A stretch of DNA of 64,000 nt from Lysobacterales bacterium (lineage in GTDB: Bacteria; Pseudomonadota; Gammaproteobacteria; Xanthomonadales; SZUA-36). The position numbers and the translations under genes are program-made. Numbering within the stretch: position 1 is the first letter of the stretch; every line of letters starts with the position of its first letter. Location: NCBI GenBank assembly GCA_013001885.1, contig JABDLD010000033.1, positions 709-64,708 of the forward strand, given 5' to 3'. Of this stretch, positions 42,283 through 58,580 are shown one piece after another. The notes beneath the pieces were generated by a model, which was not told the DNA's origin, did no database searches, and saw nothing but the letters and a program-made list of their open reading frames with translations.

Positions 42283-42768
42283 TTGAGCGGCCACGGTAAA
42301 GGACGGCCTCTGGGAAAATGCGACGGGGCCGCAACCGGTTTCACACTGGTCGAAATGCTGGTCGTGCTGGTCATCGTCTCGCTGATGCTGGCGCTGGTGG
42401 GAACTTCGATTTCCCGCAACATCAGCGGAGCCGAAATGCGCACGGCGGCCAGCAAGATTGCCTCTTCATTGCGCTACACCCGAACCCAGGCGATCTTGAC
42501 CAAGTCAGAACAGGTTTTCGTGGTGGATACCGAGGCGCTCACTTACCAGGCCGGAAGCAGAAAAGCTGAAAAACTGCCTAAAGACATGAAAGTCGAATTG
42601 AATACCGCCCGTTCTGAGTTGACCTCGGAAACGGCCGGCGGTATCCGCTTCTACCCGGATGGAGGATCGACCGGCGGTAATGTCCGTCTTGAAGCCAATG
42701 GCCGTATCTACCTGGTCAACGTGGCCTGGTTGACGGGTGAAGCGTCCGTCGAGCGGCCCGAAGACTGA
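42283..42768 (+). CDS. gspH: Minor pseudopilin GspH
   Basis: TTG start and prepilin site G|FTLVEMLVVL. Size and gene order support the call. Confidence 0.75.
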   Translation: MSGHGKGRPLGKCDGAATGFTLVEMLVVLVIVSLMLALVGTSISRNISGAEMRTAASKIASSLRYTRTQAILTKSEQVFVVDTEALTYQAGSRKAEKLPKDMKVELNTARSELTSETAGGIRFYPDGGSTGGNVRLEANGRIYLVNVAWLTGEASVERPED

Positions 42769-42772
42769 ACTC

Positions 42773-43222
42773 ATGATCAAGCGAATTTCATCAAAGGCAC
42801 CCCCACGCGGAAATGGCGGCTTTACGCTGCTGGAACTGCTGCTGGCCTTCGTCGTATTCGCGCTGAGCTTTGCAACCGTGCTTGAAATCCTTTCCGGCTC
42901 AATGCGTAACACGGTCCGCGCGAGGCATTATTCCGAGGCGGCCCTGACTGCACAGTCACTGATGGACCAAGTGGGCCTGGAAATTCCGCTGGAAGCTGGG
43001 TTTGCTGCCAATGGGGAAAGCGGAGAATACGAATGGGAGATCCAGGTTTACGAATACTCCAGCACCGGCGAGAATCCCTATAGCGTGGAGTTGTCAGAGC
43101 TCACTGGCATTTTGCTGCTGCAGGTCGACCTGGCGATTTCATGGGGCGAACGCCCGCGCGAACAGACCCGTTATTTCAGCACCGTAAAAGCGATTTTGGC
43201 CAGCACGGTGCAGCAGCCATGA
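42773..43222 (+). CDS. gspI: Minor pseudopilin GspI
   Basis: ATG at 42773 and prepilin site GG|FTLLELLL. Size and order support the call. Confidence 0.75.
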   Translation: MIKRISSKAPPRGNGGFTLLELLLAFVVFALSFATVLEILSGSMRNTVRARHYSEAALTAQSLMDQVGLEIPLEAGFAANGESGEYEWEIQVYEYSSTGENPYSVELSELTGILLLQVDLAISWGERPREQTRYFSTVKAILASTVQQP

Positions 43223-43926
43223 AGCTCGGACGAGGCTTTACACTGGTAGAATTGCTGCTGGCACTGGGCTTGATGAGCATGCTGCTGGCGCTGGCTTACG
43301 GCGGGTTGCGGGCATCCACCCGGGCCGCAGATAAAGGCCAGGCCATTCTGGAAGACAGCAGCCGGATCAGGATGGCGCATCAATTCGTCAGGAAACAGCT
43401 GAACCAGATGATTCCGATCGCGTATCTCGAAGACCCTGACACCGGGGAGCGGGTTGTATTCGAGGGTTCTTCCAAGATTATCCGGTTTGTCGCCCCGATG
43501 CCCGGATACCTCGGTTTTGGCGGGCCCCAGGTGCAGGAGTTGGCGGTGGTTCCCGGTGACGAAGGCGAGATGCTGGTTCTTTCGCATGCGCTTTTGCAGG
43601 GTTTCGAGGAACAGAACCTATACTTCCGCGACCCGATTGTGCTGCTGGAAAAGGTCGGTAACGCAGAGTTCAGTTTCCTGGGCCGGGATGAAACCGGGGA
43701 ACTCACCGGCTGGACCAACCAGTGGGATCTGCCGGATGTCCTGCCGGAATCCGTATCTCTGGATGTCGAATTTGCAGATGAAGTTTACATTCAATGGCCG
43801 TTGTTGACGGCCTCGGTCCGCGTTGACCCGGCAGCTCTGCAGGGACTGGAGTCCAACATGGGAATCCGCGAGGACTACAGCACCACCATTCGTGACATGA
43901 TCAATAAACGGAGGCAGCAAAATTGA
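43219..43926 (+). CDS. gspJ: Minor pseudopilin GspJ
   Basis: ATGA overlap with gspI. The sequence begins MKLGRG|FTLVELLL. Confidence 0.75.
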   Translation: MKLGRGFTLVELLLALGLMSMLLALAYGGLRASTRAADKGQAILEDSSRIRMAHQFVRKQLNQMIPIAYLEDPDTGERVVFEGSSKIIRFVAPMPGYLGFGGPQVQELAVVPGDEGEMLVLSHALLQGFEEQNLYFRDPIVLLEKVGNAEFSFLGRDETGELTGWTNQWDLPDVLPESVSLDVEFADEVYIQWPLLTASVRVDPAALQGLESNMGIREDYSTTIRDMINKRRQQN

Positions 43927-44843
43927 AAGCCTCTCGATTAGCTGCTTTTTCCTTGAGTCCTCCCGGGCACCAGCGGGGTATCGCGCTGGTCATCGTTCTC
44001 TGGATATTGCTGCTGGTCACCATTTCAACCGGCGCCTACACCCTGATGGCGCGGATGGATCAGCTCGAGGCGCACACGGTCATCTCCAGCACGCGGGCGA
44101 GAATGGCTGCCGAATCCGGAATAAACCTTGCAGTGTTGTCGCTGCGGGATCCGGATGAACTCAACCGGCTGATTCCGGACGGCCGCCCCTACGCGTTCCA
44201 GGTCCAGGATATCTTCGTCGAAATTGAAGTAACGGACGAACGCGGCAAAGTAGACATCAACTCCGTCAACGAGCAGACCTTGTTGCAGTTGCTTCAAGGC
44301 CATGGGCTGCAGGCGGGCGACGCCGAGTACCTCGCTGCCGCCATTCTGGACTGGGTCGACGTGGACGAGATCGAGCGGGCCAGTGGTGCGGAGCTGCCTG
44401 CATACGAGTCGGCAGGTCTGGGCGTGGGTCCCGCCAACCGTCCGTTTGTCATGATTGAAGAGCTGCTGCAGGTGTTGGGAATGCCGTGGGATCTGTTCAA
44501 GAAAATGGAACCGGGATTGACCGTATTTTCCAAGTTAGGTGTGCCCGATGCCGCCTACGCGCCGCTGGAGGCGCTGCTGGCGATACCGGACATGACCGAG
44601 GAAGATGCGTTGAACTTCATTGCAGAACGGCAATCTGAGGATGCGTCAGGCGGGATGGGCGCAACGCTTCCAAACGGGCAGGTTGCCGTGGCGCGAGGCC
44701 GGGGGCTGACGTATAGTGTGCTCGCCAAAGCGACGCTGCCCAACGGGATCTGGGACCAGGTGGAAGCCACGATACGTTTAGGCGGAGGCGGGGACGGCCG
44801 GCCGTACACCGTATTGAAGTGGCAGGAAGGATTTCATAATTGA
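43923..44843 (+). CDS. gspK: Minor pseudopilin GspK
   Basis: The QRG|IALVIVLWIL N-terminus lacks Glu+5, as in GspK. About 300 aa, in the expected order. Confidence 0.75.
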   Translation: MKASRLAAFSLSPPGHQRGIALVIVLWILLLVTISTGAYTLMARMDQLEAHTVISSTRARMAAESGINLAVLSLRDPDELNRLIPDGRPYAFQVQDIFVEIEVTDERGKVDINSVNEQTLLQLLQGHGLQAGDAEYLAAAILDWVDVDEIERASGAELPAYESAGLGVGPANRPFVMIEELLQVLGMPWDLFKKMEPGLTVFSKLGVPDAAYAPLEALLAIPDMTEEDALNFIAERQSEDASGGMGATLPNGQVAVARGRGLTYSVLAKATLPNGIWDQVEATIRLGGGGDGRPYTVLKWQEGFHN

Positions 44844-44850
44844 GAACACC

Positions 44851-45969
44851 ATGCTGAAAGTTTTAGAGGATAAATTGCTGCAACTTCTCAGCTGGCTGCG
44901 GGCCGGGCCGGCCGGTAAGTTTCTGCGCTGGTGGACAGGGGAACTCCGGCAGGCGATGCCCTCTTCCTGGCAGCAAAAATTACAGCATGCGCTGCGCCGC
45001 ACGACCCTGAAGGTCAAAGATGAGTCGTTGCTCGTCGGTGTGGACGAGAACCGGGCGTTGCGAAACCTCGAAGTGTTTTCCATGGCCCAGGCGGCTTCCG
45101 TGCAGAAGCAACAGGTCGAGGACCTGTTGCTCAACAACGAACTGCAGGAGGCGCCCCGGGTTCTCCTGCTGGATTTGGAGACTGTCCTCAACCGGGAGAT
45201 GAAGCTGCCGCTGGCGGCTGAATCCAACCTGGCGCAGGTTCTGACTTTCGAGATGGACCGCCAGACCCCGTTCAGGGCATCCGATGTTTACTTCGACTGG
45301 AAAATCACCGGACGCGATACTGAAAGCAATCAACTTCACCTGCACCTGTATGTGATCCCGCGCACGGAAGCTGACCGGATTATGAGTTCAGTCACGGATC
45401 GCGGGTTCAACCTGACAGGTGTCGACATCGTCGACGGCGACCGGACTCTGGGGCTCAACCTCCTGCCCGCCGAGCGGCGGTTCCGGATGGTTAACAGGAA
45501 GGCCAGGATGAACCTTGCACTCGGCGCGGCCTGTGTCGTCTTGCTGGTGCTGGTGATGGCGCAATCACTGTATCTGCGCGCCCATCAGGTTACGGAACTC
45601 GAGGCCGCGATAACCGACGTCCAGGGCCAGGCGCGTGAAGTCATGGAGATCAAGCAACAGATCGATGAAACCAGCGAGGCGGCTGGATTTCTCGCCACCC
45701 GGCGCGCCGAGGTGCCGTTGGCTATCGAGGTCCTCGCGGACATCACGGAAATTCTGCCGGATGATACTTATCTCGACCGGCTGGTGATCACCAACTCGTC
45801 CGTTCAGCTGCAGGGCAAGTCACAAAATGCACAGCGCTTAATTGAACTGGTGAACGAATCTGCTTTACTGGACGATGCAGCATTCAGAGGCTCAACCCGC
45901 CTGGATGCCCGCAGCGGGCTGGAAATATTTGAAGTTAACGCCACGATTGTGAAGGCAGGCACGAACTGA
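44851..45969 (+). CDS. gspL: Type II secretion assembly protein GspL (PilN-like periplasmic part)
   Basis: 372 aa with a single central TM (LALGAACVVLLVLVMA). Positioned between gspK and gspM. Confidence 0.6.
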   Translation: MLKVLEDKLLQLLSWLRAGPAGKFLRWWTGELRQAMPSSWQQKLQHALRRTTLKVKDESLLVGVDENRALRNLEVFSMAQAASVQKQQVEDLLLNNELQEAPRVLLLDLETVLNREMKLPLAAESNLAQVLTFEMDRQTPFRASDVYFDWKITGRDTESNQLHLHLYVIPRTEADRIMSSVTDRGFNLTGVDIVDGDRTLGLNLLPAERRFRMVNRKARMNLALGAACVVLLVLVMAQSLYLRAHQVTELEAAITDVQGQAREVMEIKQQIDETSEAAGFLATRRAEVPLAIEVLADITEILPDDTYLDRLVITNSSVQLQGKSQNAQRLIELVNESALLDDAAFRGSTRLDARSGLEIFEVNATIVKAGTN

Positions 45970-46568
45970 TGGCGCTGATTGCAGAACAGGGAAATAATCG
46001 CCTGACAGCAATTTTGCTGTTCGTCATCGCCGTTATTTTTGTGTATCTCGTGTGCTTTCACTGGTTCATCCTGCGGCATGTGGAGTATTCCGCCGAAATT
46101 TCGGAATTGTCCACTCAACTGGGCCGGTACGAGAGAGTCGCCGCACAGAAAACACAGTACGAATCATTGCTGCAGAGTCTCGATGACCGAAAATCTGATC
46201 AGAACCTGTTTCTCGAGGGCGGCGATTTTAATGAGGCCGCGGCGGAGATGTCGGAACGCCTCAGTGTAATGGTCAACACCCAGGCAGACGACACCTGTCA
46301 GATTGTCAGCCGGCAGCCGGTGCGCCCGCGCGTGCAGGAACGATTCCAAAAGGTGACCGTCAACGTGCGTATGCGCTGTGAAATTGATGATTTGCAGAAG
46401 GTGCTGTACTCGCTTGAATCCGGCGTGCCGATGGTGATCGCTGATGAGGTCACCGTGATCAAACCAAGAACGCGGCGGCGCACGAGGAACGCCAACCCGC
46501 GTGCGACGTCCGCTCTTGATGTCCGCTTCAATATGTCCGGATATCTGAGCGCGGGAAGTGATTCGTGA
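45969..46568 (+). CDS. gspM: Type II secretion protein GspM
   Basis: ATGA overlap with gspL. N-terminal TM followed by a periplasmic ferredoxin-like-sized domain; assigned by order. Confidence 0.6.
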   Translation: MALIAEQGNNRLTAILLFVIAVIFVYLVCFHWFILRHVEYSAEISELSTQLGRYERVAAQKTQYESLLQSLDDRKSDQNLFLEGGDFNEAAAEMSERLSVMVNTQADDTCQIVSRQPVRPRVQERFQKVTVNVRMRCEIDDLQKVLYSLESGVPMVIADEVTVIKPRTRRRTRNANPRATSALDVRFNMSGYLSAGSDS

Positions 46569-47353
46569 GCCGCTGGTTTGAAGGCAATCCCCTGGCCATG
46601 GTCCTTGCTTCCGCCTGCGGTTTTCTGCTGTTGATTGCGGTTGTGCTTGGCGTGTTACGGTCTTTGCCGCCCTCAACGCCGGGCACGGGCGGGGACGGCC
46701 AGTCCGCCGATCTGGTGCTGGAAGTGCCCCAGCTGGGAGAAGCTGAACCCCTCGACAGGTACGCGGTCATAACGGAACGCCCGGTGTTCAATGAAGGCCG
46801 CCAGCCGCAACTCGAGGGTCTGGATGAAGGCGAGGGCGAGGGCGACGAACTGGCCGAAGAAGAGGTCGATGCGCCTGAGCTGGAACTGGCCGGCGTGGTT
46901 ATTACGCCTTCGATCCGCATGGTGACGCTCAAGAGCAAGGACAGTTCCGAGTCACTGGTCGCTTTTGAGGGCAAACCGCTCGAGGGAAATTACGGCACCT
47001 GGCAGGTGAGCCGGATCGAACCGAGGCAAATCACGTTATCATCAGGTGCGGGCGAGGAGAAACTGCTGAAGCTCCAGGTGCATGACGCCAAAATCGCAGA
47101 GCCACCCAAAATGGAGGTGGCGAAAGATGATGAAGCGGAACAGTCGGCCGATGCCGGTGACGCCCAAAGCGACCAGCCTCTCTCCCGTGCGGAAGAAATC
47201 CGCCAGCGCATTGCGGAACGCAGAGAGGAACTCAGGCGCGCTGCGGAAGAAAAGCAGGACGGCGAAGAGAAGCCGCAGGATTACCGGTCAGCGATACAGT
47301 CGATGATAAAGTCGTCGCGCCAAAAAGAACAAACAGATGAAAACGATTCGTAA
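46565..47353 (+). CDS. GspC/XpsN-like secretin-interacting protein
   Basis: GTG start overlaps the gspM stop. N-terminal TM, acidic low-complexity stretch, then an HR-like segment (LELAGVVITPSIRMVTLKSKDSSESLVAFEGKPL...WQVSRIEPRQITL). It sits immediately before the secretin, as xpsN does. Confidence 0.5.
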   Translation: MSRWFEGNPLAMVLASACGFLLLIAVVLGVLRSLPPSTPGTGGDGQSADLVLEVPQLGEAEPLDRYAVITERPVFNEGRQPQLEGLDEGEGEGDELAEEEVDAPELELAGVVITPSIRMVTLKSKDSSESLVAFEGKPLEGNYGTWQVSRIEPRQITLSSGAGEEKLLKLQVHDAKIAEPPKMEVAKDDEAEQSADAGDAQSDQPLSRAEEIRQRIAERREELRRAAEEKQDGEEKPQDYRSAIQSMIKSSRQKEQTDENDS

Positions 47354-49658
47354 AAGGATATCGGGCATGAGATCGATTAATCAGTTTGCACGGAACAGGA
47401 GATACTCCCCGTCGCGATGGCCGGCACACCCTCCTTCAAAGTGGGCCAGGCGGCTGGCATTGATCGTGGCGACCGTGTTTGTCGTTGCTGCGTGCTCGAC
47501 GACCACGCGTGCTCCGATGAGGCCGATGAGCACCGGTAAAACGATCAAATCCGCCGCGAGCAACGTGCCGGAGCAGCGGCCGATTACGACCGCTCCGCAG
47601 ACCGTGGATCCGGGCGTGACCGATATTGAAATTTATCAGGGCACCGGCGAATTCATCAACCAGGAGGCTGCGCGCCGGGCGCCGGAGGTGGTCGCAGAGG
47701 ACGGTGAAATCGTGCTCAATTTCGAGGGCGAATCAATCCAGTCCGTGGTTCACACGATCCTCGGTGAAGTGCTGCAGGAGACTTTCGTCATTGGGCCGGG
47801 TGTGAGTGGTGAAGTGACTTTTTCGACCTCCAAGCCGATCAACCGCGACCAGTTGATGCCGATCCTGGAATTGCTGCTGCGCTGGAATGGCGCGACGATG
47901 GTGTTCAACGAGGGCCGTTACAACATCCTGCCCGTTTCGGACGCCATCCGCGGAAACCTCTTTCCGGAAGTCGGTGCGGCTGACCAGGCGCGGGGCTACT
48001 CGGTACGGGCCGTGCCGTTGCGTTACATATCGGCGCCTGAAATGGCAAAAATACTGGAGCCCTATGTCAGGGACGGTGGAATTATCAACTCGGATGAATT
48101 CCGGCAGATGATTTTCCTGGCCGGCACGCCGGAAGAATTGAGGAATTACCTCAAGACCGTGGCGATCTTCGACGTCGACTGGCTGGAAGGGATGTCGGTT
48201 GGCATTTATCCGTTGCAAACGGTAGACGTCGATTCAATCATCCTGGAGCTTGAGGGCATTTTCGGCTCGAACGCGGAATCGCCGCTGGCCGGGATGTTCC
48301 GTTTTGTGCCGCTGGAGCGCCTCGCCTCGGTGATGGTGATCACGTTTGAGCAGTCCTACCTTTACAAGGCGGAGGAGTGGATCAAAATTCTTGACCGCGG
48401 AGCAGCCGGTGCGGGAACCCAGTTATATGTTTACCGGGTCAAAAACCTCGAGGCCCCCATTCTGGCCGGGTATCTGACCCAGCTATTTGGTGGCGAAGGT
48501 GGGCAGCCCACGCAAAATACGCCCAGGGGCACGTTGGCGCCGGGGCTGGAGCCCGCGACCGTGGGCAGCGTTTCGGACTTCAATCAAAACCGCCTGGGCT
48601 CGCAGCAGCAACAAAACCGGCAGTCAGGCGTCCAGTCGGGAGCGCTGGACATGGGGTCCGGTGACATCCGCATCACTTCGGTACTCGAGACCAACTCGTT
48701 GCTCATCCAGTCCACCCAGGCCGAATACAACGCGGTGCTTGCCGCCATCGAACGCATAGACATCGAGCCGTTGCAGGTGCTGATCGAGTCGCAGGTGCTC
48801 GATGTGGAGCTGAATGAAGAGCTTCAATTTGGTGTCAATTGGTTCCTGACAAACAATCCCGACCTGATTCCCTCAGGTATCGGAGACATCAGCGAATATG
48901 TTCAGAGTGCCGCTTTCGGTAGCGGCAGCGCCGAGTCCGGCGGGTTCAATTTGCTTACTACGCTGGCCACACCCCTGAGCAACGGCATGCCGTTTGTCCA
49001 GGCGACGATAGCCGCCCTGGACGAGGTAACCGATGTTCGAGCCCTGGCGGCACCGTCGCTGCTGGTCAGAAACAATGCCACGGCCACGATTACCGTCGGC
49101 ACGCAGGTTCCGGTGCAGTCGTCTTCAATCTCGACGGGGAACAATAACGTTGTCAGCAGTGCCCAGTACGTATCCACCGGCGTCACCCTGACAGTTACGC
49201 CGAGAATCAATCCGGGAGGACTGGTCTACATGGATATTACCCAGGACGTCAGCCGTCCAGGCGCCCGTGATCCGGACATATCGACCAGCGGCAACCCGCC
49301 TATCAACAACAAATCCGTCTCCAGCCAGGTGGCGGTGCAGTCCGGCCAGACCGTTTTCCTCGGCGGGCTCATTTCCGAACAGGATTCAAGAGGGCGTTCC
49401 GGAGTCCCGTTCCTGAGCCGGGTGCCGCTGATCGGGCCGCTGTTCGGATCCAAGACGAAGGCCACTTCGCGCAGCGAGACCCTGGTGATGATTACGCCCA
49501 CGGTGATCGAAACGGCTGTCGATTTGCAGGAAATCAGCGAGGACATGGAACGGGAGTTCTCCCGCATACCGCCGTTGAAGATCAGCAGCCTGAACCCGGT
49601 CGACCGCGAGTATCAAAAACAACAGAAAGATGAATCGGCCAACGAACCCGAAAATTAA
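47337..49658 (+). CDS. gspD: Type II secretion secretin GspD with N-terminal lipobox (liposecretin-like)
   Basis: N0 domain (IVLNFEGESIQSVVHTILGE), repeated N domains and a C-terminal secretin domain (GVPFLSRVPLIGPLFG...ETLVMITPTVI). The signal sequence ends VFVVAAC|STT (lipobox). The start may be 47337 or the ATG at 47367. Confidence 0.9.
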   Translation: MKTIRKRISGMRSINQFARNRRYSPSRWPAHPPSKWARRLALIVATVFVVAACSTTTRAPMRPMSTGKTIKSAASNVPEQRPITTAPQTVDPGVTDIEIYQGTGEFINQEAARRAPEVVAEDGEIVLNFEGESIQSVVHTILGEVLQETFVIGPGVSGEVTFSTSKPINRDQLMPILELLLRWNGATMVFNEGRYNILPVSDAIRGNLFPEVGAADQARGYSVRAVPLRYISAPEMAKILEPYVRDGGIINSDEFRQMIFLAGTPEELRNYLKTVAIFDVDWLEGMSVGIYPLQTVDVDSIILELEGIFGSNAESPLAGMFRFVPLERLASVMVITFEQSYLYKAEEWIKILDRGAAGAGTQLYVYRVKNLEAPILAGYLTQLFGGEGGQPTQNTPRGTLAPGLEPATVGSVSDFNQNRLGSQQQQNRQSGVQSGALDMGSGDIRITSVLETNSLLIQSTQAEYNAVLAAIERIDIEPLQVLIESQVLDVELNEELQFGVNWFLTNNPDLIPSGIGDISEYVQSAAFGSGSAESGGFNLLTTLATPLSNGMPFVQATIAALDEVTDVRALAAPSLLVRNNATATITVGTQVPVQSSSISTGNNNVVSSAQYVSTGVTLTVTPRINPGGLVYMDITQDVSRPGARDPDISTSGNPPINNKSVSSQVAVQSGQTVFLGGLISEQDSRGRSGVPFLSRVPLIGPLFGSKTKATSRSETLVMITPTVIETAVDLQEISEDMEREFSRIPPLKISSLNPVDREYQKQQKDESANEPEN

Positions 49659-49684: not shown

Positions 49685-50125
49685 ATGAAAATTTTTGAAA
49701 TAATCAAGGCGCGAAATCTGAAACACGCCGTAAGCTTCACGTTGCTGGCCTTGTTGTCACTGGTGCTCGGTGGTTGCGCAGGCACCAGTCCCGCCGGAGA
49801 CTCGCTGCTGGAGCGGGCGCAGCTGCGCTGGGACAGCATTCTCTCGCGGGATCTCGACACGGCCTACAGCCTTTACTCACCGGGTTACCGCTCAAAACAC
49901 TCGCGCGTAGACTTCGAGATCGAATTACGGACCAAACGCGTAAAATGGACCTCGGCCGAGTACATCGACCGGGAGTGCTCGGAAAACCGCTGCCTGGTCA
50001 ATTTCAACGTCGGATTTACCGTGCAGAGACCGGTACCGGGTCTCGATGAGTTCAAGAGTTCCAACCTCATCCAGGACACCTGGGTCAAAACCCGCGGAGA
50101 GTGGTGGTATGTGCCGCCAAAATAG
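49685..50125 (+). CDS. Small lipoprotein of unknown function
   Basis: Lipobox LVLGGC|AGT with a mature part of about 115 aa. Starts 26 nt after the gspD stop. Confidence 0.6.
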   Translation: MKIFEIIKARNLKHAVSFTLLALLSLVLGGCAGTSPAGDSLLERAQLRWDSILSRDLDTAYSLYSPGYRSKHSRVDFEIELRTKRVKWTSAEYIDRECSENRCLVNFNVGFTVQRPVPGLDEFKSSNLIQDTWVKTRGEWWYVPPK

Positions 50126-50170
50126 TGAAATCTGAATCCCGAAACTTGCCTGTATTTACATTGGGTTTTG

Positions 50171-50199
50171 TTGCTTTACCCCCCTTATTATCGTAATAT
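50171..50199 (+). promoter_or_regulatory. Candidate sigma70 promoter for the 548-aa secreted protein gene
   Basis: TTGCTT (50171-50176), a 17-nt spacer, then TAATAT (50194-50199). Lies about 110 nt upstream of the ATG at 50311, in a locally AT-richer intergenic region. Confidence 0.4.
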
Positions 50200-50310
50200 T
50201 GTGCCGCGAATAGTCTGAGTGTCGACGTGCGCGCCTGTGAAAATCAGACGGGTATCGGAGAGTTCAGTTTTTTTGCAAAGCCCTGTGTACACAACTTTAG
50301 GAGTGTTGTA

Positions 50311-51957
50311 ATGAATAGAAAAAATTTGACATGTGCCGTATTGGCCGGTCTGGCAGGTGTTGCCGGACTTGCTGCTACCGCACAAGCAGTCAACCTGAAT
50401 CCGGATGGATTGGGACAAGTTCTCGTTTATCCGTATTACACCGCCAATGATGGCAACCAGACCGTTCTGTCGGTGGTTAACACCACCAACAATGCGAAAG
50501 CAGTCAAGGTCCGGTTCCTCGAAGGCTTCAATTCACGTGAAGTTCTTGACTTCAACCTGTATATGTCGGAACACGATGTGTGGGTAGCTTCTATCGCCGC
50601 TGGCGAGAACGCACCTACGCTGTTTATTCCTGACTCTTCCTGCACCGTTCCCTACCTCTACGGTATGGGTAAGGCTGCTGGTCTGGACTACGGCATGCAG
50701 CCGTTCCTGACTCTCGCTTACACCGGTGACAATGAGGATGGCGGGCCGACCGCAATCCAGCGTGCCGCTGAAGGTCATTTTGAAATGATCGAAATGGGCG
50801 TACTGACCGGCGATTCTGCTGATGACGTGCGTCATGACAATTCAGACGGTGGCACCGGCGAGCCGGCTGACTGCATGGAACTCAGCGACAAATGGTCAGA
50901 AGTGATCAACGGCACCAACGGTATCTGGTTCGACGAAGCAAACTTTGGCACCGATGATTGCACGATCGACGATCAGGCCTGCACCGACACCGACCGCGCC
51001 AGCGGCGGACTGTTCGGCGGCGCTGCGGTGGTTAACGCAACCAACGGCACCATGTACAGCTATGACGCCAAGGCCATTCAGGGCTTCGACAAGACTGACA
51101 ACGGTCTGCACTACGAGCCCGGCACCATCTTCCCGTCACTGCGTAGCGGTAGCGAGTCTGATGCATGGGTCTTCTTTGGTGTTCCGCAGAATACTGCAGT
51201 TCAGCTTGATTACTCTGACGAAGATGACCTCAGCGTTGACGCGGTTTCAGCCGTGTTCATGCACGAAAACCTGATGAACGAGTACACCACCGAGGACGAC
51301 CTGTCGGCCGGAACCGAGTGGATCATCACGTTCCCGACCAAGGCTTTCTACGCTGACGCAGCCCTGATGGTTTCATTGGGTATCGATGAAGAAGCTTGCA
51401 CAGGTGATGGTGACGATGAAGTGTGCGTTACCACTCCTCGCGCTCCTTTCACCCAGTTGTTTGGTGATGAAAGTGCCGACGGCGACCGTCTGTGCGAAGT
51501 CGTATCCCTGAAGACCTGGGATCGCGAAGAGAAGACGTTCGTACCCGAAGGTCCGGGCACCGGCGTAATTCCTCCGCAGGTTTCACCGGCTCCGCCGCGT
51601 GAGTGCATCACCGGCCTCGAGCCCGCTTGCACGGAGTCGACCGTATTCCAGCTGTGTAACGAAGTCAACGTCCTTCGCTTTGGTGAAAGGTCAGTCTTCG
51701 GTACTCCGGACTTCGGTGCTGACGGCAGCCTGCTGCTTTCCGTTCAGGACGAGTTCGAGAACGGCTGGGGCAAGATCAACCTGGGTGTTGACGGTGACGG
51801 CGATCTGCGCACCGACAGAGAAGGCCTGGTTGGCTTGCCGGTTGCTGGCTTTGCCGCTTACGAATTCGAAAACGATTTCGTGGACAATGACGGCATCAAG
51901 GCCTTCTACGGCGGCCTGTTCGGCCACAAGGGCAACGTGCGTCGCGTTAACGACTAA
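50311..51957 (+). CDS. Secreted acidic Cys-containing protein of unknown function (candidate T2SS cargo or surface-layer protein)
   Basis: ATG at 50311 is preceded by a strong SD (TTAGGAGTGTTGTAATG). The Sec signal peptide ends in ATAQA|VNL. The mature protein is rich in D/E/G/T with 10 Cys and no C-terminal TM or sorting signal. I recognise no family. Confidence 0.7.
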   Translation: MNRKNLTCAVLAGLAGVAGLAATAQAVNLNPDGLGQVLVYPYYTANDGNQTVLSVVNTTNNAKAVKVRFLEGFNSREVLDFNLYMSEHDVWVASIAAGENAPTLFIPDSSCTVPYLYGMGKAAGLDYGMQPFLTLAYTGDNEDGGPTAIQRAAEGHFEMIEMGVLTGDSADDVRHDNSDGGTGEPADCMELSDKWSEVINGTNGIWFDEANFGTDDCTIDDQACTDTDRASGGLFGGAAVVNATNGTMYSYDAKAIQGFDKTDNGLHYEPGTIFPSLRSGSESDAWVFFGVPQNTAVQLDYSDEDDLSVDAVSAVFMHENLMNEYTTEDDLSAGTEWIITFPTKAFYADAALMVSLGIDEEACTGDGDDEVCVTTPRAPFTQLFGDESADGDRLCEVVSLKTWDREEKTFVPEGPGTGVIPPQVSPAPPRECITGLEPACTESTVFQLCNEVNVLRFGERSVFGTPDFGADGSLLLSVQDEFENGWGKINLGVDGDGDLRTDREGLVGLPVAGFAAYEFENDFVDNDGIKAFYGGLFGHKGNVRRVND

Positions 51958-51999
51958 ACGTACTTGCCATAAAGAAATCATAGCTTCGGCGATGATGAG

Positions 52000-52030
52000 G
52001 AAGGGGCTGCATTCGCAGCCCCTTCTTTTA
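52000..52030 (+). terminator. Rho-independent terminator after the 548-aa protein gene
   Basis: Perfect 11-bp stem gaaggggctgc / gcagccccttc with loop attc, followed by tttta. Confidence 0.8.
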
Positions 52031-52068: not shown

Positions 52069-53022
52069 ATGACCATTCGATCCATTAAATCCCTAGTGGT
52101 GATATTGACCGTCCTGACGCAGAGCGCGATATTTGCCCAGCAAGAGTCAACGGACACCAAGGCCAGCTCATCAAACGACATTTTTGCCCGCCAGGGTAGT
52201 GTCGTGCTGACCCATAGTGAGCTCGACGCCGCCTTTTCCCGTATACCGCCGGAATTCCGTCTGGCCTTCATTCGTGACGGAGCGAAGGTGGATGACCTGG
52301 TAAAGTCCCTGCTGCGTCTGAAGCTGGTCGCCGCTGATGCCTCCCGTTCCGGTTTTGACCAGCAACCCATGATTGCTGAACGAATGCAGCTTGCGGCCGA
52401 AAAGGAGCTGGCGGAAGCGTGGGTGGGCAACCTGATTGAAAACGCGCCGGAGGCTGATTACGAGGCCCTGGCGCTGGAATACTACCTGGCTCACCCGGAT
52501 GAGTTCAAAATGCCGGAAAGGGTCGATGTTTCGCACATCCTGATTTCTTCAGAAACCCGATCCGAGGAAAAAGCGCTGGCGCTTGCCACCCGGCTGCATG
52601 ATGACTTGCGCACTGATCCGTCGCAGTTTGATGGATACGTCACAGAATATTCTGAAGACCCCGCGAAAACCAGCAACGCCGGCCGTTACCCCGGCATGCA
52701 GCGCGGCCAGATGGTCAAGCGATTTGAAGAGGCGGCTTTTACGCTGCAGCAACCGGGGGACATCACGGAGCCGGTGAAAACGTCTTACGGCTACCACATA
52801 ATACGGCTGAACCAGGCCAAGCCCTCCGCGCCAATCCCGTTTGAGCAAATCAAGGAACAGGCGTCTGAAATGGCAAAGGAGCAGTATCTGTCGGAATACC
52901 GCGCACGGTATATCAAACAGCAGATTGCAGAACCCATCGAACTGGCTGATGGAGCGGCTGAGGCGATGGTTAAACGGTATTTTGGAGAAGAACTGGAATT
53001 GATTCCGGAATTTCCAGAGTGA
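52069..53022 (+). CDS. Periplasmic parvulin-type peptidyl-prolyl cis-trans isomerase (SurA/PpiD-like N-domain)
   Basis: Signal peptide (..SAIFAQQ). Parvulin core VSHILI...MVKRFEEAAF...PVKTSYGYHIIRL. Confidence 0.8.
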   Translation: MTIRSIKSLVVILTVLTQSAIFAQQESTDTKASSSNDIFARQGSVVLTHSELDAAFSRIPPEFRLAFIRDGAKVDDLVKSLLRLKLVAADASRSGFDQQPMIAERMQLAAEKELAEAWVGNLIENAPEADYEALALEYYLAHPDEFKMPERVDVSHILISSETRSEEKALALATRLHDDLRTDPSQFDGYVTEYSEDPAKTSNAGRYPGMQRGQMVKRFEEAAFTLQQPGDITEPVKTSYGYHIIRLNQAKPSAPIPFEQIKEQASEMAKEQYLSEYRARYIKQQIAEPIELADGAAEAMVKRYFGEELELIPEFPE

Positions 53023-53054: not shown

Positions 53055-53831
53055 GTGAATTTGCTGACCAATAATGTCTTCCGCCAGTTGGTTTCGCGCG
53101 CCATCAGGACGGACTATCTCGAGAACCTGACGGGTTTTGCCTGGCTGATACTACAGCCGCTGGTTCTTCTGGCTGTTTACGCTTTCGTATTCACGACGAT
53201 TTTTACCGCCAGGGTGCCGGATTCCGGCGCCGGCGGCTTTGTTCCGTATCTTGCGGTCGCGTTTTGGCCCTGGACTGCATTTTCCGAAGCGGTTTTACGC
53301 TCGTCCAACTGTGTCAGCGCCAATGCCGCGCTGATCGGCAAAGTGGCTTTTCCCAGCGAGTTGCTGCCTTTGTCTGCAGTAACTGCCACGTTCCTGATGA
53401 ACCTGGCAGGCTACCTGGCCGTGCTGGTCGTTCTGCAGTTACTGGGAACACCGATCCATTGGCTCGGCGTAATACCGGCTTTGCCGGTGCTGCTACTGCT
53501 CTACCTGTTTGCGAACGGACTGGCGCTGTTTTTCAGTGCCCTGCAGGTATTTATCCGGGACGTTTCCCAAATTTTGCCGCCGCTGATGACCTTCTGGTTT
53601 TTCACCACGCCCATCCTCTATAGCTCGAGCCTGCTGCCGGAACAGTTCGCTACGCTGATGAAGTTCAACCCGATGTCCTGGTACGTTGAGCGGCTCCGTG
53701 ATTTCCTGTTGCTCGGTAACTATGACCTCTCCCCTTACGATGCTGTGGTGCCTGTGCTCACGGTGATCGTGTTTTGGGCGGCGCTGCGGTTCTTCCGCAA
53801 GTTCAGCGCGCATTTCGAGGATTTTCTCTGA
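53055..53831 (+). CDS. wzm: ABC-2 type polysaccharide exporter permease (Wzm-like)
   Basis: GTG start. Six TM segments with an ABC-2 pattern (FAWLILQPLVLLAVYAFVF, NPMSWYVE). Confidence 0.8.
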   Translation: MNLLTNNVFRQLVSRAIRTDYLENLTGFAWLILQPLVLLAVYAFVFTTIFTARVPDSGAGGFVPYLAVAFWPWTAFSEAVLRSSNCVSANAALIGKVAFPSELLPLSAVTATFLMNLAGYLAVLVVLQLLGTPIHWLGVIPALPVLLLLYLFANGLALFFSALQVFIRDVSQILPPLMTFWFFTTPILYSSSLLPEQFATLMKFNPMSWYVERLRDFLLLGNYDLSPYDAVVPVLTVIVFWAALRFFRKFSAHFEDFL

Positions 53832-55018
53832 TGAAGCCATTGGTGAGAATAAGGGGCGTATCCAAATTCTACCCAAGGGTGCACCGGCCGCGGGAGCGCT
53901 TGCGGGCGTTTGCTTCGCTGATGGCCGGCAGCAGGATACGCGAGGGGGCAGAGGTCCTGCATGACGTCAGCCTGGAAGTAACCGCCGGCCAGTCGTTTGG
54001 AATCATCGGGGAGAACGGCGCCGGAAAATCGACCTTGCTCAAGATTCTGACGGGTGTGATCAGCCCCAGCCGGGGAAGTGTAGAGGTCAACGCCCGCATC
54101 GCCGCCTTGCTGGAACTGGGAGCGGGCTTTCAACCTGAGTTTTCCGGTATCGATAACGTCAGGATGAAGTCTGCACTGCTGGGCATGAGCGCAAGCCATC
54201 TCGACGCGCACATGGATGAAATCCTCGCCTTTGCAGATATCGGTGATTACGTGTACGAGCCGGTCAAGCACTACTCGTCCGGCATGGTGGTCCGGCTTGG
54301 GTTCGCAGTCGTGGCGGCTTCCGATCCCCAACTGCTGATCACTGACGAGGTACTGGCCGTTGGTGATGAGGCGTTTCAGAAAAAGTGCATTCGCTGGATC
54401 GAGTCTTTTCTCGATCGGGGCAATACGCTGTTGATGGTTTCCCACAGCATGTACCTGGTGCAAAAGCTTTGCCGCCAGGCTTTGTGGCTGCACGACGGCC
54501 GCATGCGGGAGATCGGGGACGTGTTTCCGGTCACGCAGTCTTACCTGGCCTACAGCGAGGAGCGTACCTCGGCGGAAAGGCGGCACCGCAGGGAACAAAG
54601 CGGTGACAGCGGACTTTATCGAATTAAGGATTTTGCCCTGCCTGATCAGGAAGGGGAGCGGGATCTTGTGATCGGGTTCGGCGGCGATCTAAGAGCGGAA
54701 CTGGTGCTGCACTCTCCGGATGGCCAGCCTCCGGTCGCCTTGTTTGGCGTCATGCGCGCCGACGGCACGCCTGTCTATGGAGTCGCCTCCGATTTCGATG
54801 AAATCGAAGCAGAGAAGCTCGATCAAAACCATTTTCGCTTCCGCATCTGTTTTGACCAACTGCCTCTGCTGCCAGGCAGCTATTCACTTCGGGGTCACGC
54901 AATGGATTCCCAGGGTATCCGCTTGTGCGACACGGCCGAACTGCGGTTCAGCGTAGCGGGTGAATCCCGGGAGATGGGAATGATTCGATTGCCTCACAGT
55001 TGGAACGGGCAAGAGTAA
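53831..55018 (+). CDS. wzt: Polysaccharide ABC exporter ATP-binding protein (Wzt-like) with C-terminal beta-sandwich extension
   Basis: TGATG overlap with wzm. Walker A GENGAGKST, signature YSSGMVVRL and Walker B LLITDE. An extra domain of about 140 aa follows the NBD (..LLPGSYSLRGHAMD..), as in Wzt carbohydrate-binding domains. Confidence 0.85.
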   Translation: MKPLVRIRGVSKFYPRVHRPRERLRAFASLMAGSRIREGAEVLHDVSLEVTAGQSFGIIGENGAGKSTLLKILTGVISPSRGSVEVNARIAALLELGAGFQPEFSGIDNVRMKSALLGMSASHLDAHMDEILAFADIGDYVYEPVKHYSSGMVVRLGFAVVAASDPQLLITDEVLAVGDEAFQKKCIRWIESFLDRGNTLLMVSHSMYLVQKLCRQALWLHDGRMREIGDVFPVTQSYLAYSEERTSAERRHRREQSGDSGLYRIKDFALPDQEGERDLVIGFGGDLRAELVLHSPDGQPPVALFGVMRADGTPVYGVASDFDEIEAEKLDQNHFRFRICFDQLPLLPGSYSLRGHAMDSQGIRLCDTAELRFSVAGESREMGMIRLPHSWNGQE

Positions 55019-55025
55019 TCTTCGC

Positions 55026-55871
55026 ATGACCGGCGCAGCCGAAAAAATCTCCGTTGTGATCCCGGCGTACAACGCCGCCGAGGAACTGGCGTGCTGCCTG
55101 GAAAGCGTATTCGCGACTACCCCGATGAGCACGGAAGTCTTGATTATTGACGATGCGTCACCCGATCCGGCAACGCAAAGGGTGCTGGACGATTGGCGGG
55201 AAAAAGCTCCGGCAGGCTGGACCTTCACCCGCCACGAGCAAAACCTGGGTTTCGTCGCAACGGCCAACCGGGGTATGCGCGCAACGCATGGCGACGTTGT
55301 GTTGCTCAATTCGGACACGCTGGTCACGCCTCGCTGGCTGGAAGGCTTGCAGCGATGTCTGGCATCCGGTTCAGAGATCGCCACGGCCACGCCTTGGACC
55401 AACAACGGCGAAATTGCCTCCATTCCGCTGTTCTGCGAATCCAACCCGGTGCCTCCGGACGTTGATGCAGTTGCTGCCGCCATCGCGCAGGCTGGATCCC
55501 GCGGGTATCCTGAGCTGCCGACCGCGGTAGGTTTTTGCATGGCCGTATCCCGGAGAGCCATTGAGCGGGTCGGTGTCTTCAACGCCGAACAGTTCGGCAA
55601 GGGCTACGGCGAGGAGAACGATTTTTCGCTGCGGGCCGCCGCCGCGGGAATGCGTAACGTGTTGTGTGACGACGTATACGTTGCTCACCTGGGCGGCCGG
55701 TCGTTCGGCCCTGCCGGGCTGAAGCCCGACGAGTCGTCAATGCAGCGGCTGCTAGCCCTCCATCCCGGCTACCTGCAGCTGGTACAGTCATTTATCGAAA
55801 CGGACCCGCTTTTTGCCAGGCGAACGCTTGTTTTGGAAGCATTGGAGCGGGCCGGGGTCTCGATGGGTTAA
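55026..55871 (+). CDS. Glycosyltransferase family 2
   Basis: ISVVIPAYNAAEEL...IIDDASPD...LNSDT GT-A (DxD-type) motifs. Confidence 0.8.
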   Translation: MTGAAEKISVVIPAYNAAEELACCLESVFATTPMSTEVLIIDDASPDPATQRVLDDWREKAPAGWTFTRHEQNLGFVATANRGMRATHGDVVLLNSDTLVTPRWLEGLQRCLASGSEIATATPWTNNGEIASIPLFCESNPVPPDVDAVAAAIAQAGSRGYPELPTAVGFCMAVSRRAIERVGVFNAEQFGKGYGEENDFSLRAAAAGMRNVLCDDVYVAHLGGRSFGPAGLKPDESSMQRLLALHPGYLQLVQSFIETDPLFARRTLVLEALERAGVSMG

Positions 55872-55876
55872 AATCT

Positions 55877-56794
55877 ATGCCACACGGACATTCCACGGAG
55901 ATCGACTTGTCCCAATCCCTCGACTTTACCGGTGAACGCTTTACCCCCGAGTGTGTGCGGGAAATCTGGTACGAGCATCTGCATCGTTACGTCTTCGCTC
56001 GTGAGCTGGTTGCCGGGCTGAACGTTCTGGATGCCGCTTGCGGCGAAGGTTACGGCGCGGCCATACTGGCGGGACCGGCCGCTTCGGTGACCGGCGTGGA
56101 TCTGTCCCCCTCCGCGATTGACCATGCCTGTAAACGTTACCGAGTGAAAAATCTCGATTTTCAGGTGGCCGACTGCCTGTCTTTGCCGTTTGCAGACGAG
56201 CAATTCGATTGCATCGTCTCATTCGAGACCCTCGAGCATCTCGAGGACCACCAGGGTTTGATGAATGAGTTCAGGCGGGTGTTGAGGCCGCAGGGAATCC
56301 TGTTGCTGTCTTCTCCCGACCGGGCGGTGTACACGGACCGGCAAAACAACCGAAATGAGTATCACGTCCGGGAGCTGTACCGGGACGAATTCGAGGCGCT
56401 TTTGCAGACGCATTTTCCGGCGTACCGTCTTTGGGGCCAAAAACTGCTTTTCCAGTCGGCCATCTGGTCGCTCAGCGAGAATCCCGGCGTCGGCTTTCAC
56501 CAGGAGGACGGCGGGCAGATTGAAAAGTACGCCTCTCCCCGCCACGACCCGGTTTATTTCATTGCGGTATGCGCTGCGGCCGAGGACTTACTGCCCTCGA
56601 TACGGCCGGGCCTGAGCTTGTTCGATGATGCTGCCGAATCGGTGTACGAGCATTACTATCACGAGATTCGTAAGAATATGGCTGCTGGCGAAATCCTTGC
56701 GAAAAAAGAGCGGGAACTGGCGGAACTGAAGGCAGCGTTGCAAAAAAGCAAAAGCGCAGCTCGCTGGTGGAGCCGTCTGCTGGGTAAAAGCTGA
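55877..56794 (+). CDS. Class I SAM-dependent methyltransferase with C-terminal coiled coil
   Basis: SAM motif I VLDAACGEGYG and post-I GVDLS. A C-terminal helical tail is present (AAGEILAKKERELAELKAALQKSK). Confidence 0.8.
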   Translation: MPHGHSTEIDLSQSLDFTGERFTPECVREIWYEHLHRYVFARELVAGLNVLDAACGEGYGAAILAGPAASVTGVDLSPSAIDHACKRYRVKNLDFQVADCLSLPFADEQFDCIVSFETLEHLEDHQGLMNEFRRVLRPQGILLLSSPDRAVYTDRQNNRNEYHVRELYRDEFEALLQTHFPAYRLWGQKLLFQSAIWSLSENPGVGFHQEDGGQIEKYASPRHDPVYFIAVCAAAEDLLPSIRPGLSLFDDAAESVYEHYYHEIRKNMAAGEILAKKERELAELKAALQKSKSAARWWSRLLGKS

Positions 56795-57684
56795 TGCAGG
56801 AAGCCGGAGTCAAACCGGCGGTGGAAGTCATCGTGGTTAATTTCAACGCTGGATCCGCACTGGTTCGCTGTATTCAATCCATCCTGGCGCAACAGCAACC
56901 GGTCAACATCACGGTTGCGGATAATGCCTCGACTGACGGCAGTATCAGCCGGCTGCTGGAATCCCTCGGGCCGCTGGACAACCTGGCCGTGCTGGCTAAT
57001 GACCAGAACCTGGGTTTCGCCAGCGCCATCAATGAAGCCGCCCGTTTGCGCGAGCTGCGCGGGCGTTACCTGCTCATCCTGAATCCGGATTGTGAAATGT
57101 TGCCCGGTTCTCTGGCCGCGATGATTGAAGCGCTGGAACAGGACGAACAGGCCGGCCTGGCCGGGCCGATGGTCGTGAATCGTGAGCACCAGCCCATGCG
57201 CGGAACCTTGCGCCGGTTTCCGGGCCCGGGCTCCGCCTTTCTGACGTTTTCCGGATTGTGGCGGCTGGCCCGGTGGTTTCCTTTCTTCAGCGGGGTGGAA
57301 ATGATGGACCGGCTACCCGCGGAAACAGCCACCGCTGAGGCCGTATCGGGTGCCTGCATGCTGCTGAGGGTGTCTGACTTTTTGAGCGTCGGCGGCATGG
57401 ACGGGGATTACGGCCTTCATTGCGAAGACCTCGACCTGATGTACCGGCTGCGGCAGAAGGGCCGTCATTGCCTGTTCGTTCCGGCAGCACAGGTCTTTCA
57501 TGCCCAGGGAGTCTCAAGCAGCGGGCGGCCGGTCTGGGTGCATTGGCAGAAACATCTGGGGATGCAGCGTTTTTTCAAAAAATTCCAGGCCGGGCAGACT
57601 TTTTTGCTGCTTCGCTGGCTGGTGCTCGCAGGTATCTGGCTGCGCTTTGTCGTAACACTCCCGCTGGTATGGATACGGCGCTGA
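56794..57684 (+). CDS. Glycosyltransferase family 2 (rhamnosyltransferase-like)
   Basis: ATGA overlap with the methyltransferase. VIVVNFNAGSAL...VADNASTDGS...LNPDC motifs. Confidence 0.8.
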   Translation: MQEAGVKPAVEVIVVNFNAGSALVRCIQSILAQQQPVNITVADNASTDGSISRLLESLGPLDNLAVLANDQNLGFASAINEAARLRELRGRYLLILNPDCEMLPGSLAAMIEALEQDEQAGLAGPMVVNREHQPMRGTLRRFPGPGSAFLTFSGLWRLARWFPFFSGVEMMDRLPAETATAEAVSGACMLLRVSDFLSVGGMDGDYGLHCEDLDLMYRLRQKGRHCLFVPAAQVFHAQGVSSSGRPVWVHWQKHLGMQRFFKKFQAGQTFLLLRWLVLAGIWLRFVVTLPLVWIRR

Positions 57685-58580
57685 ATACCGGCCGCCGGGA
57701 TCGGGTGATTGTCACCGGAGCAAGCAGTCAACTGGGTGTGTTCCTGTTGCCCAGACTGCAGGCCGCGGGATTCAGAGTTCTTGCGCTCAGCCGGAATGCG
57801 CCGGCGTCACCGGTCGACATATCGGAGAGCGTTCGTTGGTTGAGGTCTGATAAGGCATTGGCCCCGGCCTGTTGCCTCGTTTCCTGTGGGCCGCTTGAGC
57901 TTGCGCGCACGCTGGCCGAGCAGACTTCGGGCCTGCAGCGCGTTGTCGCGTTCAGCACAAGCAGTGTCCTGACCAAAGCCCGTTCAGACAATCCTGAAGA
58001 AAGCCGTCAGATGGCAGAAATACTCGCTCACGAGCGGCTACTGCGCGCAACCTGCGACATACAGGGTATCGCACTGGCATTGATTCGGCCCACGATGATT
58101 TACGGCTGCGGGCTGGACCGAAACATCAGCCTGCTGGCGGCTTTTGGGCGGCGCTTCGGTTTTATTCCAGTATCCTCGTCGGCAGGGGGTTTACGCCAGC
58201 CGGTTCATGCAGACGATCTGGCGGCGCTTGCGCTAGCCTGTCTGTCAAGTGAAACGGCGCTCAGTTTGGAAAGCGTCGCCTGCGGCGGCAGCACTCTAAG
58301 CTACTGCAAAATGATGGAAAAAACGGCTGCGGCAGGTGGAAAAGACGTTTCCATATTAAAGCTCAATCCGCGTTTGTTCAGTTTCGCGGCAAGCCTTGCC
58401 TCGTTGGTGCCGGGATTCAAAGGTCTGAATCCGGAGATGGTTCGCCGACAGGGAAGAGACATGGTATTCGATGACTCTGAACTGAGAGAAAAACTGAATT
58501 ATCAACCCCGGCCGTTCGAGCCGGCCCCGGCCGATCTGCAGGTTCCAGGTTTTGCCCGAGAACTGCAGTTAACCGGATAG
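57669..58580 (+). CDS. NAD(P)-binding SDR/epimerase-family protein
   Basis: The start is trimmed to the ATG at 57669. Rossmann motif [11 protein letters not shown]. The function within the glycan cluster is not assignable from sequence. Confidence 0.55.

Follow-up and report, generated by a model that had tools for sequence, protein, structure and literature searches.

A probable NpdA-family S-layer protein encoded beside a type II secretion operon in a deep-branching Lysobacterales genome

What kind of protein is encoded directly after the type II secretion system (T2SS) operon of this uncultured bacterium, and what does it do once it has been exported? The stretch of DNA analyzed, hereafter the window, comprises 64,000 nucleotides of a Lysobacterales genome (assembly GCA_013001885.1, contig JABDLD010000033.1), and the gene in question is an open reading frame (ORF) at 50311-51957 on the + strand, which starts with ATG and encodes 548 amino acids. 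The original prediction, made from the letters alone, had described a self-contained, apparently highly expressed gene for an acidic secreted protein of no recognizable family. A longer frame, started by GTG from 50227, is also listed for the same ORF. However, the alignment of relatives shows that ATG 50311 is the start retained by all of them, and it sits 3' of a conserved Shine-Dalgarno (SD) sequence.

As judged from sequence and gene order, this gene encodes a member of the NpdA family, and its product is most likely a subunit of the cell's surface lattice. We assign a probability of roughly 80% to the reading that it is the NpdA-family surface-layer (S-layer) protein of its host, a deep-branching gammaproteobacterial Lysobacterales represented by a metagenome-assembled genome (MAG), made and assembled through the five-step pathway described below. 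NpdA was first defined in Delftia Cs1-4, where the knockout loses both the S-layer and the 'nanopods' (Shetty, 2011; PMC3110197), and it forms the S-layer of Paracidovorax citrulli, as established by deletion, proteomics and cryo-electron microscopy (cryo-EM) (Gajbhiye et al., 2023; PMC10765051). Orthologues are listed in 62 beta- and 49 gammaproteobacterial species, including Wenzhouxiangella limi, W. marina, Wenzhouxiangella AB-CW3, Chiayiivirga, Rudaea, Dokdonella and Lysobacter, and cryo-EM showed S-layers resembling that of NpdA in 15 of 16 further cultures, all of which had been picked as carriers of an npdA orthologue (PMC10765051). One such carrier within the Lysobacterales, Rudaea cellulosilytica, shows an S-layer in cryo-EM and is described as having S-layer-coated vesicles (PMC10765051), which lends the window protein indirect support as a lattice former.

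The window protein aligns over residues 14-540 with residues 28-526 of P. citrulli NpdA (WP_011797163; BLASTP, E 3e-21), and a family profile built from a 37-sequence alignment (A1) scores the same P. citrulli protein at 118 bits in hmmsearch (E 2.4e-32 at Z = 1e6). Its identity is 38% with W. limi WP_164210386 (E 4e-94) and reaches 39% with AB-CW3 WP_190975830. Gajbhiye et al. (2023; PMC10765051), from whose supplement the comparison sequences were taken, name these two proteins as NpdA orthologues, and locus L065 of the W. limi genome is the syntenic match for the window protein. Four marks of the family, namely full-length homology, relatedness to listed orthologues, a Sec signal of about 25 residues without any other domain and the gene order gsp-X-npdA, were all found. 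The protein is an unannotated member of a published family, and the identification will not surprise a specialist.

The family libraries gave no hint of this relationship. Pfam and NCBIfam returned 0 families each for the window protein, in NCBIfam even at E up to 10. An NCBIfam HMM match is likewise lacking for P. citrulli NpdA, whose NCBI name is 'cell surface protein'. Searches of PDB sequences with the single protein and with the profile yielded chance matches, with E values of at least 0.3. The databases are silent on NpdA because no model has been built for the family; the original statement that the protein has no recognizable family does not hold. The family itself is large. A word-indexed search found more than 2387 homologues, all unnamed or 'hypothetical', an exhaustive profile search found 3807 clusters at 50% identity, and 557 npdA-family loci were found in species-representative genomes. 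The best 80 of these 557 loci are nearly all from Lysobacterales, i.e., Wenzhouxiangella, Elongatibacter, Rudaea, Chiayiivirga, Aquimonas, Ahniellaceae and many MAGs. Some members (P0136, P0137, P0140, P0141, P0147, P0155, P0156, P0166 and others) are 830-1650 residues long and match the NpdA profile in at least four stretches; such proteins look like S-layer proteins that were duplicated in tandem or fused.

An AlphaFold2 (AF2) model based on 37 homologues is of good confidence and mostly beta, with a predicted local distance difference test score (pLDDT) of 77.9 and a predicted template modeling score (pTM) of 0.83. Foldseek searches with this model reached at best E 0.039 in PDB and 0.009 in BFVD, with query-normalized TM scores of at most 0.16. 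A relationship to galectin-like or jelly-roll sandwiches was considered and rejected, as the match covers about 150 residues at a query-normalized TM score of about 0.13 and is not significant. An enzyme identity was likewise rejected, since the Pfam and NCBIfam scans detected no catalytic domain or motif, and no clear match to a known enzyme family was found in Pfam, NCBIfam, PDB or Foldseek.

These results also bear on an explanation close to that of the original prediction, namely that the T2SS secretes the product in quantity as an exoprotein (a lectin, for example, or an adhesin or an enzyme of unknown class) that stays soluble or is held loosely at the cell and builds no lattice. We consider this improbable. 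The full-length homology is to a protein whose deletion removes the S-layer in two genera, the Pfam and NCBIfam scans detected no catalytic domain or motif, and the tight linkage of the gene to a lipopolysaccharide (LPS) glycan cluster and a foldase gene is better suited to a cell-bound array. The position of the gene directly 3' of the T2SS operon would fit such an exoprotein, as would the galectin-like character of the sole structural resemblance, non-significant as it is, and the level of the AB-CW3 orthologue, which is abundant yet far from dominant.

The protein consists of a signal peptide and a mature part:

50311..50388, + strand: Sec signal peptide of 26 residues, MNRKNLTCAVLAGLAGVAGLAATAQA, with cleavage before VNLNPDG; n, h and c regions and the AxA motif identified by inspection
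50389..51957, + strand: mature NpdA-family protein and stop codon; 522 residues, about 56 kDa, isoelectric point (pI) about 4.05, 10 Cys; identified by BLASTP, the A1 profile and AF2

The signal peptide of the window protein (MNRKNLTCAVLAGLAGVAGLAATAQA|VN, cleavage AQA|V) was judged by inspection, which agrees with the cleavage site proposed earlier, and it is near-invariant in A1. The AB-CW3 orthologue is also annotated with a signal peptide, and P. citrulli NpdA has a SignalP 6 likelihood of 0.9989 (supplement of PMC10765051). The acidic character noted from the sequence is pronounced, as the mature protein of pI about 4.05 contains 90 Asp and Glu residues versus 28 Lys and Arg residues. The count of 10 Cys applies to the mature protein; the whole product has 11, because C8 lies within the signal peptide. 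In A1, invariant Cys are limited to C111, C188, C372, C395 and C449, and four of these five are matched by Cys in the alignment with P. citrulli NpdA. No annotated sorting domain such as PEP-CTERM was found in the Pfam and NCBIfam scans of the window protein, and neither a transmembrane segment nor a lipobox was seen when the sequence was judged by eye, in line with the original prediction.

Conservation per residue peaks at residues 1-80 (0.86-0.95) and is lowest, with the most insertions, at about residues 165-225 and 355-375. This profile fits a conserved anchoring or contact module combined with variable exposed loops. For anchoring or lattice contact, the leading candidate is the near-invariant beta module at the N-terminus (about residues 27-95), and the insertion-rich segments at about 165-225 and 355-375 are probably surface-exposed loops.

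The gene carries its own expression signals:

50171..50199, + strand: putative promoter, -35 TTGCTT at 50171-50176, 17-nucleotide spacer, -10 TAATAT at 50194-50199
50200..50310, + strand: 5' untranslated region (5'UTR) of about 105 nucleotides with the conserved block GCAAAGCCCTGTGTACACAACTTTAGGAGTGTTGTA, the 13-mer CCTGTGTACACAA at 50282-50294 and the SD sequence; alignments A2 and A3
51994..52029, + strand: intrinsic terminator, perfect 11-bp stem 52000-52010 / 52015-52025 with loop ATTC, followed by TTTT

The 185-bp upstream gap (50126-50310) is AT-richer than its surroundings, as stated previously, with a GC fraction of 0.44 versus 0.58 for the window. The promoter TTGCTT-17-TAATAT is present as described, but calling it near-consensus was wrong, since no more than 7 of the 12 hexamer positions agree with the sigma-70 consensus. 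An alignment of 16 related loci nevertheless shows that both hexamers are kept, with a spacer that is constant in length and variable in sequence, which is good comparative evidence for a real promoter. The strong SD sequence was also recovered: AGGAG lies at 50299-50303, 7 nucleotides ahead of the ATG, and is invariant in the relatives. The terminator with its perfect 11-bp stem folds at -35 kcal/mol (z = -4.9), and none of 200 shuffled sequences folds as well. A scan for consensus promoters and terminators reported neither this promoter nor this terminator. With its own conserved promoter, its 5'UTR and its terminator, the gene can be regarded as self-contained.

The 5'UTR is conserved in its own right. 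The 13-mer CCTGTGTACACAA occurs a single time in the window; of 87 loci, 45 contain it, once each and 15-30 nucleotides 5' of the start codon. The other Lysobacterales loci have, for the most part, AGCCCTGT, 8-14 nucleotides and then TTAGGAGTGTTGT(A/G)ATG or a close variant, and the more distant Lysobacterales mostly retain AGCCCTGT followed by 8-14 nucleotides and TAGGAGTGTTGT. Throughout the order, conservation at the DNA level extends to the SD context (TTAGGAGTGTTGTAATG) and to the codons that open the gene (ATGAATAGAAAAAAT). The element at 50276-50310, which is also found upstream of npdA in loci L001-L061, consists of AGCCCTGTGTACACAA with the perfect palindrome TGTGTACACA, followed by TTAGGAGTGTTGTAATG. 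Pairing of CCUG with UAGG in this element would partly occlude the SD sequence, and the element offers no covariation by which to assess this pairing. Possible roles of the element are to bind a translational regulator or to stabilize the mRNA. An Rfam search of 49600-52200 gave no family. In the variable part of the 5'UTR (50205-50275), RNAalifold predicts from 16 loci a long-range stem (CGCGAAU... with ...AUUUGC) in which 6 pairs have compensatory changes and the energy is weak (-5.8 kcal/mol).

In codon usage the ORF is an outlier: of 47 window genes, it has the highest values for T at third codon positions (T3) and for the codons CGT, GCT and GTT, and the lowest G at third positions (G3). 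The shift toward T-ending codons claimed in the original prediction is therefore real, although ACT, which had been included in it, is not enriched (0.12 versus 0.12 in the window). When npdA homologues are compared with their neighboring genes, GGT is higher in 77/77 loci, CGT is higher in 76/77 and G3 is lower in 77/77; the 77 loci are related, and the p-values of the codon bias are therefore not independent. Because synonymous sites are saturated at 36-70% protein identity, the bias has been kept by selection. The signature of a highly expressed gene is thus both extreme in the window and recurrent across relatives.

Protein levels are available for one relative, Wenzhouxiangella AB-CW3. 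In its proteome (table in PMC7691419), the NpdA orthologue abcw3|00738 has values of 0.25-0.34 under three conditions, compared with 0.25-0.51 for the downstream peptidyl-prolyl isomerase (PPIase), 0.13-0.19 for lipoprotein X and 0.02-0.08 for the secretin, and no value in the table's first part exceeds 0.29. Taken together, the codon bias, the conserved promoter and 5'UTR, the terminator and the AB-CW3 proteome support high expression of the window gene.

How such a protein would reach the cell surface is suggested by the genes upstream:

38828..49658, + strand: Xps-type T2SS operon, gspE, F, G, H, I, J, K, L, M, N and D; NCBIfam
49685..50125, + strand: lipoprotein X, 146 residues, lipobox LGGC, conserved

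A gsp cluster 5' of npdA with a hypothetical ORF 'X' in between is a published hallmark of NpdA loci (PMC10765051). In our comparison, all related loci with enough upstream sequence have a T2SS upstream of their npdA homologue, and so do P. citrulli, Nitrosococcus and Nitrincola. X is found between gspD and npdA in all but 3 of 83 Lysobacterales loci, and in 2 of these 3 the available DNA begins too near npdA to show it. The window X has 25% identity to the P. citrulli ORF (E 7e-13) and aligns across 4 lineages; its single-sequence structure model is unusable (pLDDT 42). The adjacency to a T2SS pointed out in the original prediction is thus confirmed and is kept across two proteobacterial classes. 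However, a simple cargo released to the medium is not favored, since membership of the NpdA family implies that the product is not merely that. The T2SS is presumed to be the exporter of the window protein, judging by the conserved synteny and by the Aeromonas precedent described below; T2SS substrates as such share no defining sequence motif.

Alternatively, the product could be a structural protein of the envelope that does not need the neighboring T2SS to reach the surface or the outer membrane. In that case the two would be linked by inheritance of the gene order, and the Xps system would have the general task of secreting exoenzymes. The T2SS is indeed Xps-like, i.e., of the housekeeping type of Xanthomonadales, and its surroundings are core chromosome. 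Beside npdA, the gsp cluster is only partly retained in Thiothrix and Nitrosococcus (PMC10765051), and the T2SS dependence of NpdA is itself presumed. Still, the adjacency of gsp and npdA persists from Beta- to Gammaproteobacteria despite an NpdA identity of 25%, which is hard to explain without functional coupling, and the Pfam and NCBIfam scans showed no type I secretion C-terminal signal, autotransporter domain or sorting tag. We therefore regard this explanation as very unlikely. Neither it nor the exoprotein fits the homology and the conserved linkage as well as an S-layer protein does.

X was also considered as a pilotin, a role made less likely by the lipobox that the secretin seems to have of its own. 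By inspection, the N-terminus of GspD (47337-47500) has an apparent lipoprotein signal, …RRLALIVATVFVVAAC, with lipobox VAAC; GspD may thus be a 'liposecretin', which may manage without a pilotin. In AB-CW3, a second gspC-D-E-F set is found elsewhere in the genome (abcw3|01235-01240; supplementary table of PMC7691419). T2SS-like systems are therefore present in more than one copy in at least some of the Lysobacterales that carry NpdA, which is relevant to how dedicated the npdA-linked one is. Between purL and gspE, at 38114-38773, the window encodes a 219-residue protein that matches NCBIfam NF041730, 'exosortase H-associated membrane protein', above the cut-off (E 4e-38), and no exosortase gene is present among the annotated ORFs of the window. 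Although the genome is Gram-negative, a homologue of sortases (class D/GN-like, E 6e-39) is encoded at 1640-2290. The idea of a mobile island, or of one acquired horizontally, was considered and rejected, because the window is core chromosome (valS, proS, trpS, lptFG, purL, glyA).

The genes downstream suggest how the protein might be folded and anchored:

52069..53022, + strand: secreted parvulin-type PPIase; Pfam Rotamase families
53055..58580, + strand: ABC-transporter-dependent glycan cluster (NCBIfam and Pfam), with the genes below
53055-53831, + strand: wzm
53831-55018, + strand: wzt with Wzt_C domain
55026-55871, + strand: GT2 glycosyltransferase
about 55877-56794, + strand: methyltransferase
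56794-57684, + strand: second GT2
57669-58580, + strand: epimerase-like gene

The PPIase lies downstream of npdA in all Lysobacterales loci with sufficient DNA on that side, as it does in the 3 outgroup lineages; an extra ORF or insertions separate the two in some cases. It is presumed to be the periplasmic foldase for NpdA. When the window proteins were compared by tblastn with 83 Lysobacterales loci (NpdA identity 36-100%), the order T2SS, X, npdA, PPIase, wzm/wzt and glycosyltransferase/methyltransferase (GT/MT) genes was held, with local variations, as far as each locus extends; the PPIase-Wzm/Wzt-GT/MT block is present in most of the loci whose DNA reaches that far. The P. citrulli locus (P0270; L084, L085) has the same architecture, with homologues of the PPIase (E 3e-23), Wzt (E 6e-70) and GT (E 2e-59) as well as Wzm and MT. 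By Pfam annotation, wzm, wzt and a methyltransferase are also found in Nitrosococcus halophilus and Nitrincola, and glycosyltransferases in Nitrincola. The glycan cluster is presumed to be the source of the LPS O-polysaccharide that anchors the S-layer, and the methyltransferase together with the Wzt_C domain suggests a methyl-capped chain.

The text of the 2023 paper does not contain LPS, isomerase or glycosyl and never uses 'downstream' of such flanking genes (PMC10765051), and the searched passages of the two NpdA papers (PMC3110197, PMC10765051) make no mention of the downstream components. Given this silence of the 2023 paper, the downstream conservation appears to be an addition to the published picture.

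In many NpdA loci a second secreted Cys-rich ORF of 200-740 residues is located between npdA and the PPIase gene. It is found in Nitrosococcus, Nitrincola, Wenzhouxiangella, Chiayiivirga and other Lysobacterales (L086 11716-12330; L087 11643-12320; L065 11848-12996; L046 12052-13128; L017 11778-13727; L019 11872-14088; L027 11701-13119; L055 12020-13234), and is absent from the window and from P. citrulli. These ORFs have a common C-terminal motif, ...CPGDF...C...YYLNI..., and the AB-CW3 orthologue (abcw3|00740) has proteome values of 0.09-0.12. The Cys-rich protein may be an accessory S-layer component.

Several observations weigh against an NpdA-type S-layer in this organism. The identity to the validated NpdA is only 25% and is concentrated in the N-terminal 100 residues (44%), and with a host known from a MAG alone, we infer the formation of a lattice from homology. 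Among the cultures that carry npdA, 1 of 16 had no NpdA-type S-layer by cryo-EM (PMC10765051). The export of NpdA by the T2SS is deduced from conserved synteny and the precedent of Aeromonas VapA, and the glycan cluster could be an ordinary O-antigen locus without a specific anchoring role. Furthermore, the most abundant AB-CW3 protein in the published proteome is a TonB-dependent receptor and not the NpdA orthologue, whose value of about 0.3 is below the level typical of S-layer proteins. The proteome thus supports 'abundant' and not 'dominant'; NpdA forms SDS-resistant oligomers, so its sampling in the proteome may be low.

With these points included, we propose the following pathway. In the first step, the gene would be strongly transcribed from its own promoter into an mRNA with a 5'UTR of about 105 nucleotides, a strong SD sequence, optimal codons and a strong terminator, which both the sequence and the comparison with relatives support. 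The precursor would then pass through Sec and be cut after AQA, as the signal peptide suggests, and in the third step it would fold and form disulfides in the periplasm, probably assisted by the co-encoded parvulin PPIase. The folded protein would cross the outer membrane via the adjacent Xps-type T2SS, a step suggested by synteny and by Aeromonas VapA. In the fifth step, it would bind LPS bearing the O-polysaccharide of the Wzm/Wzt cluster and then form a two-dimensional lattice on the outer membrane, for which the LPS-dependent assembly of Delftia NpdA and the conserved gene linkage argue.

A broader reading, which we hold tentatively and at somewhat less than even odds, is that the entire 20-kb block (T2SS, X, npdA, PPIase, Wzm/Wzt and GT/MT) is one S-layer biogenesis module of Beta- and Gammaproteobacteria. 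If this is true, the methyl-capped O-polysaccharide would be a dedicated anchor, the PPIase and lipoprotein X would be dedicated assembly factors, the Xps-type T2SS of deep-branching Lysobacterales would primarily be an S-layer exporter, and expression in Lysobacterales would be governed by the 5'UTR element AGCCCTGTG, a short variable stretch and UAGGAGUGUUGUAAUG. Many lineages would have added a further secreted Cys-rich protein to this module.

Compared with known S-layer systems, the window protein resembles NpdA of Delftia acidovorans Cs1-4 and P. citrulli AAC00-1 most directly, as it shares full-length homology, a Sec signal, the absence of database domains, four Cys positions and a similar size (548 residues versus 533 in the reference). 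The locus is the same as well (gsp, X, npdA, PPIase, wzm/wzt, MT/GT), and orthologues from the same bacterial family, the Wenzhouxiangellaceae, were already included in the 2023 paper. Delftia NpdA forms a tetragonal lattice whose assembly requires LPS, according to earlier work quoted in PMC3110197. In contrast to NpdA, the window protein is much more acidic, has 10 instead of 4 Cys and contains Asp/Gly-rich insertions, and its host is an uncultured marine or saline Lysobacterales MAG known here from genes alone.

The VapA/AhsA A-layer of Aeromonas salmonicida and A. hydrophila has the same architecture, with the S-layer gene beside a T2SS and inside a Wzm/Wzt O-antigen cluster. In A. salmonicida the order is wzm, sps T2SS, vapA, wzt, and the Aeromonas subunit of about 50 kDa forms a tetragonal array tethered to LPS (PMC4483657). 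The Sps/Aps system of Aeromonas is a second, dedicated T2SS, whereas the one in the window is of the Xps type and may or may not be dedicated; the passages of PMC4483657 used here do not mention a PPIase linkage. The NpdA paper treats NpdA as a new family (PMC10765051), and VapA is likened to it here by architecture. Another S-layer protein from a gammaproteobacterium, Slr4 of Pseudoalteromonas tunicata, also has a T2SS cluster next to its gene (cited in PMC10765051); the literature treats it as a separate protein family. RsaA of Caulobacter crescentus is also an acidic Gram-negative S-layer protein with its gene clustered with its own secretion system; however, it leaves the cell through a type I system, for which it has a signal at the C-terminus instead of a Sec signal peptide, and it is unrelated in sequence, the NpdA profile being without a PDB match. 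Its N-terminal domain binds the O-antigen of LPS, and its assembly depends on Ca2+.

With this identification, a protein that is annotated everywhere as 'hypothetical' can be named and its likely function stated. It also draws attention to a large family without a Pfam or NCBIfam model or a solved structure, which occurs widely among Lysobacterales of marine, saline and soil habitats. S-layers influence susceptibility to phages, predation, the formation of vesicles and interactions with minerals, and the carriage of an S-layer gene by abundant sediment and soda-lake bacteria informs their ecology. Finally, npdA is accompanied in two proteobacterial classes by genes for a foldase and a small lipoprotein and by an O-polysaccharide cluster of the ABC type, which provides a parts list for the folding, export and anchoring of a Gram-negative S-layer.

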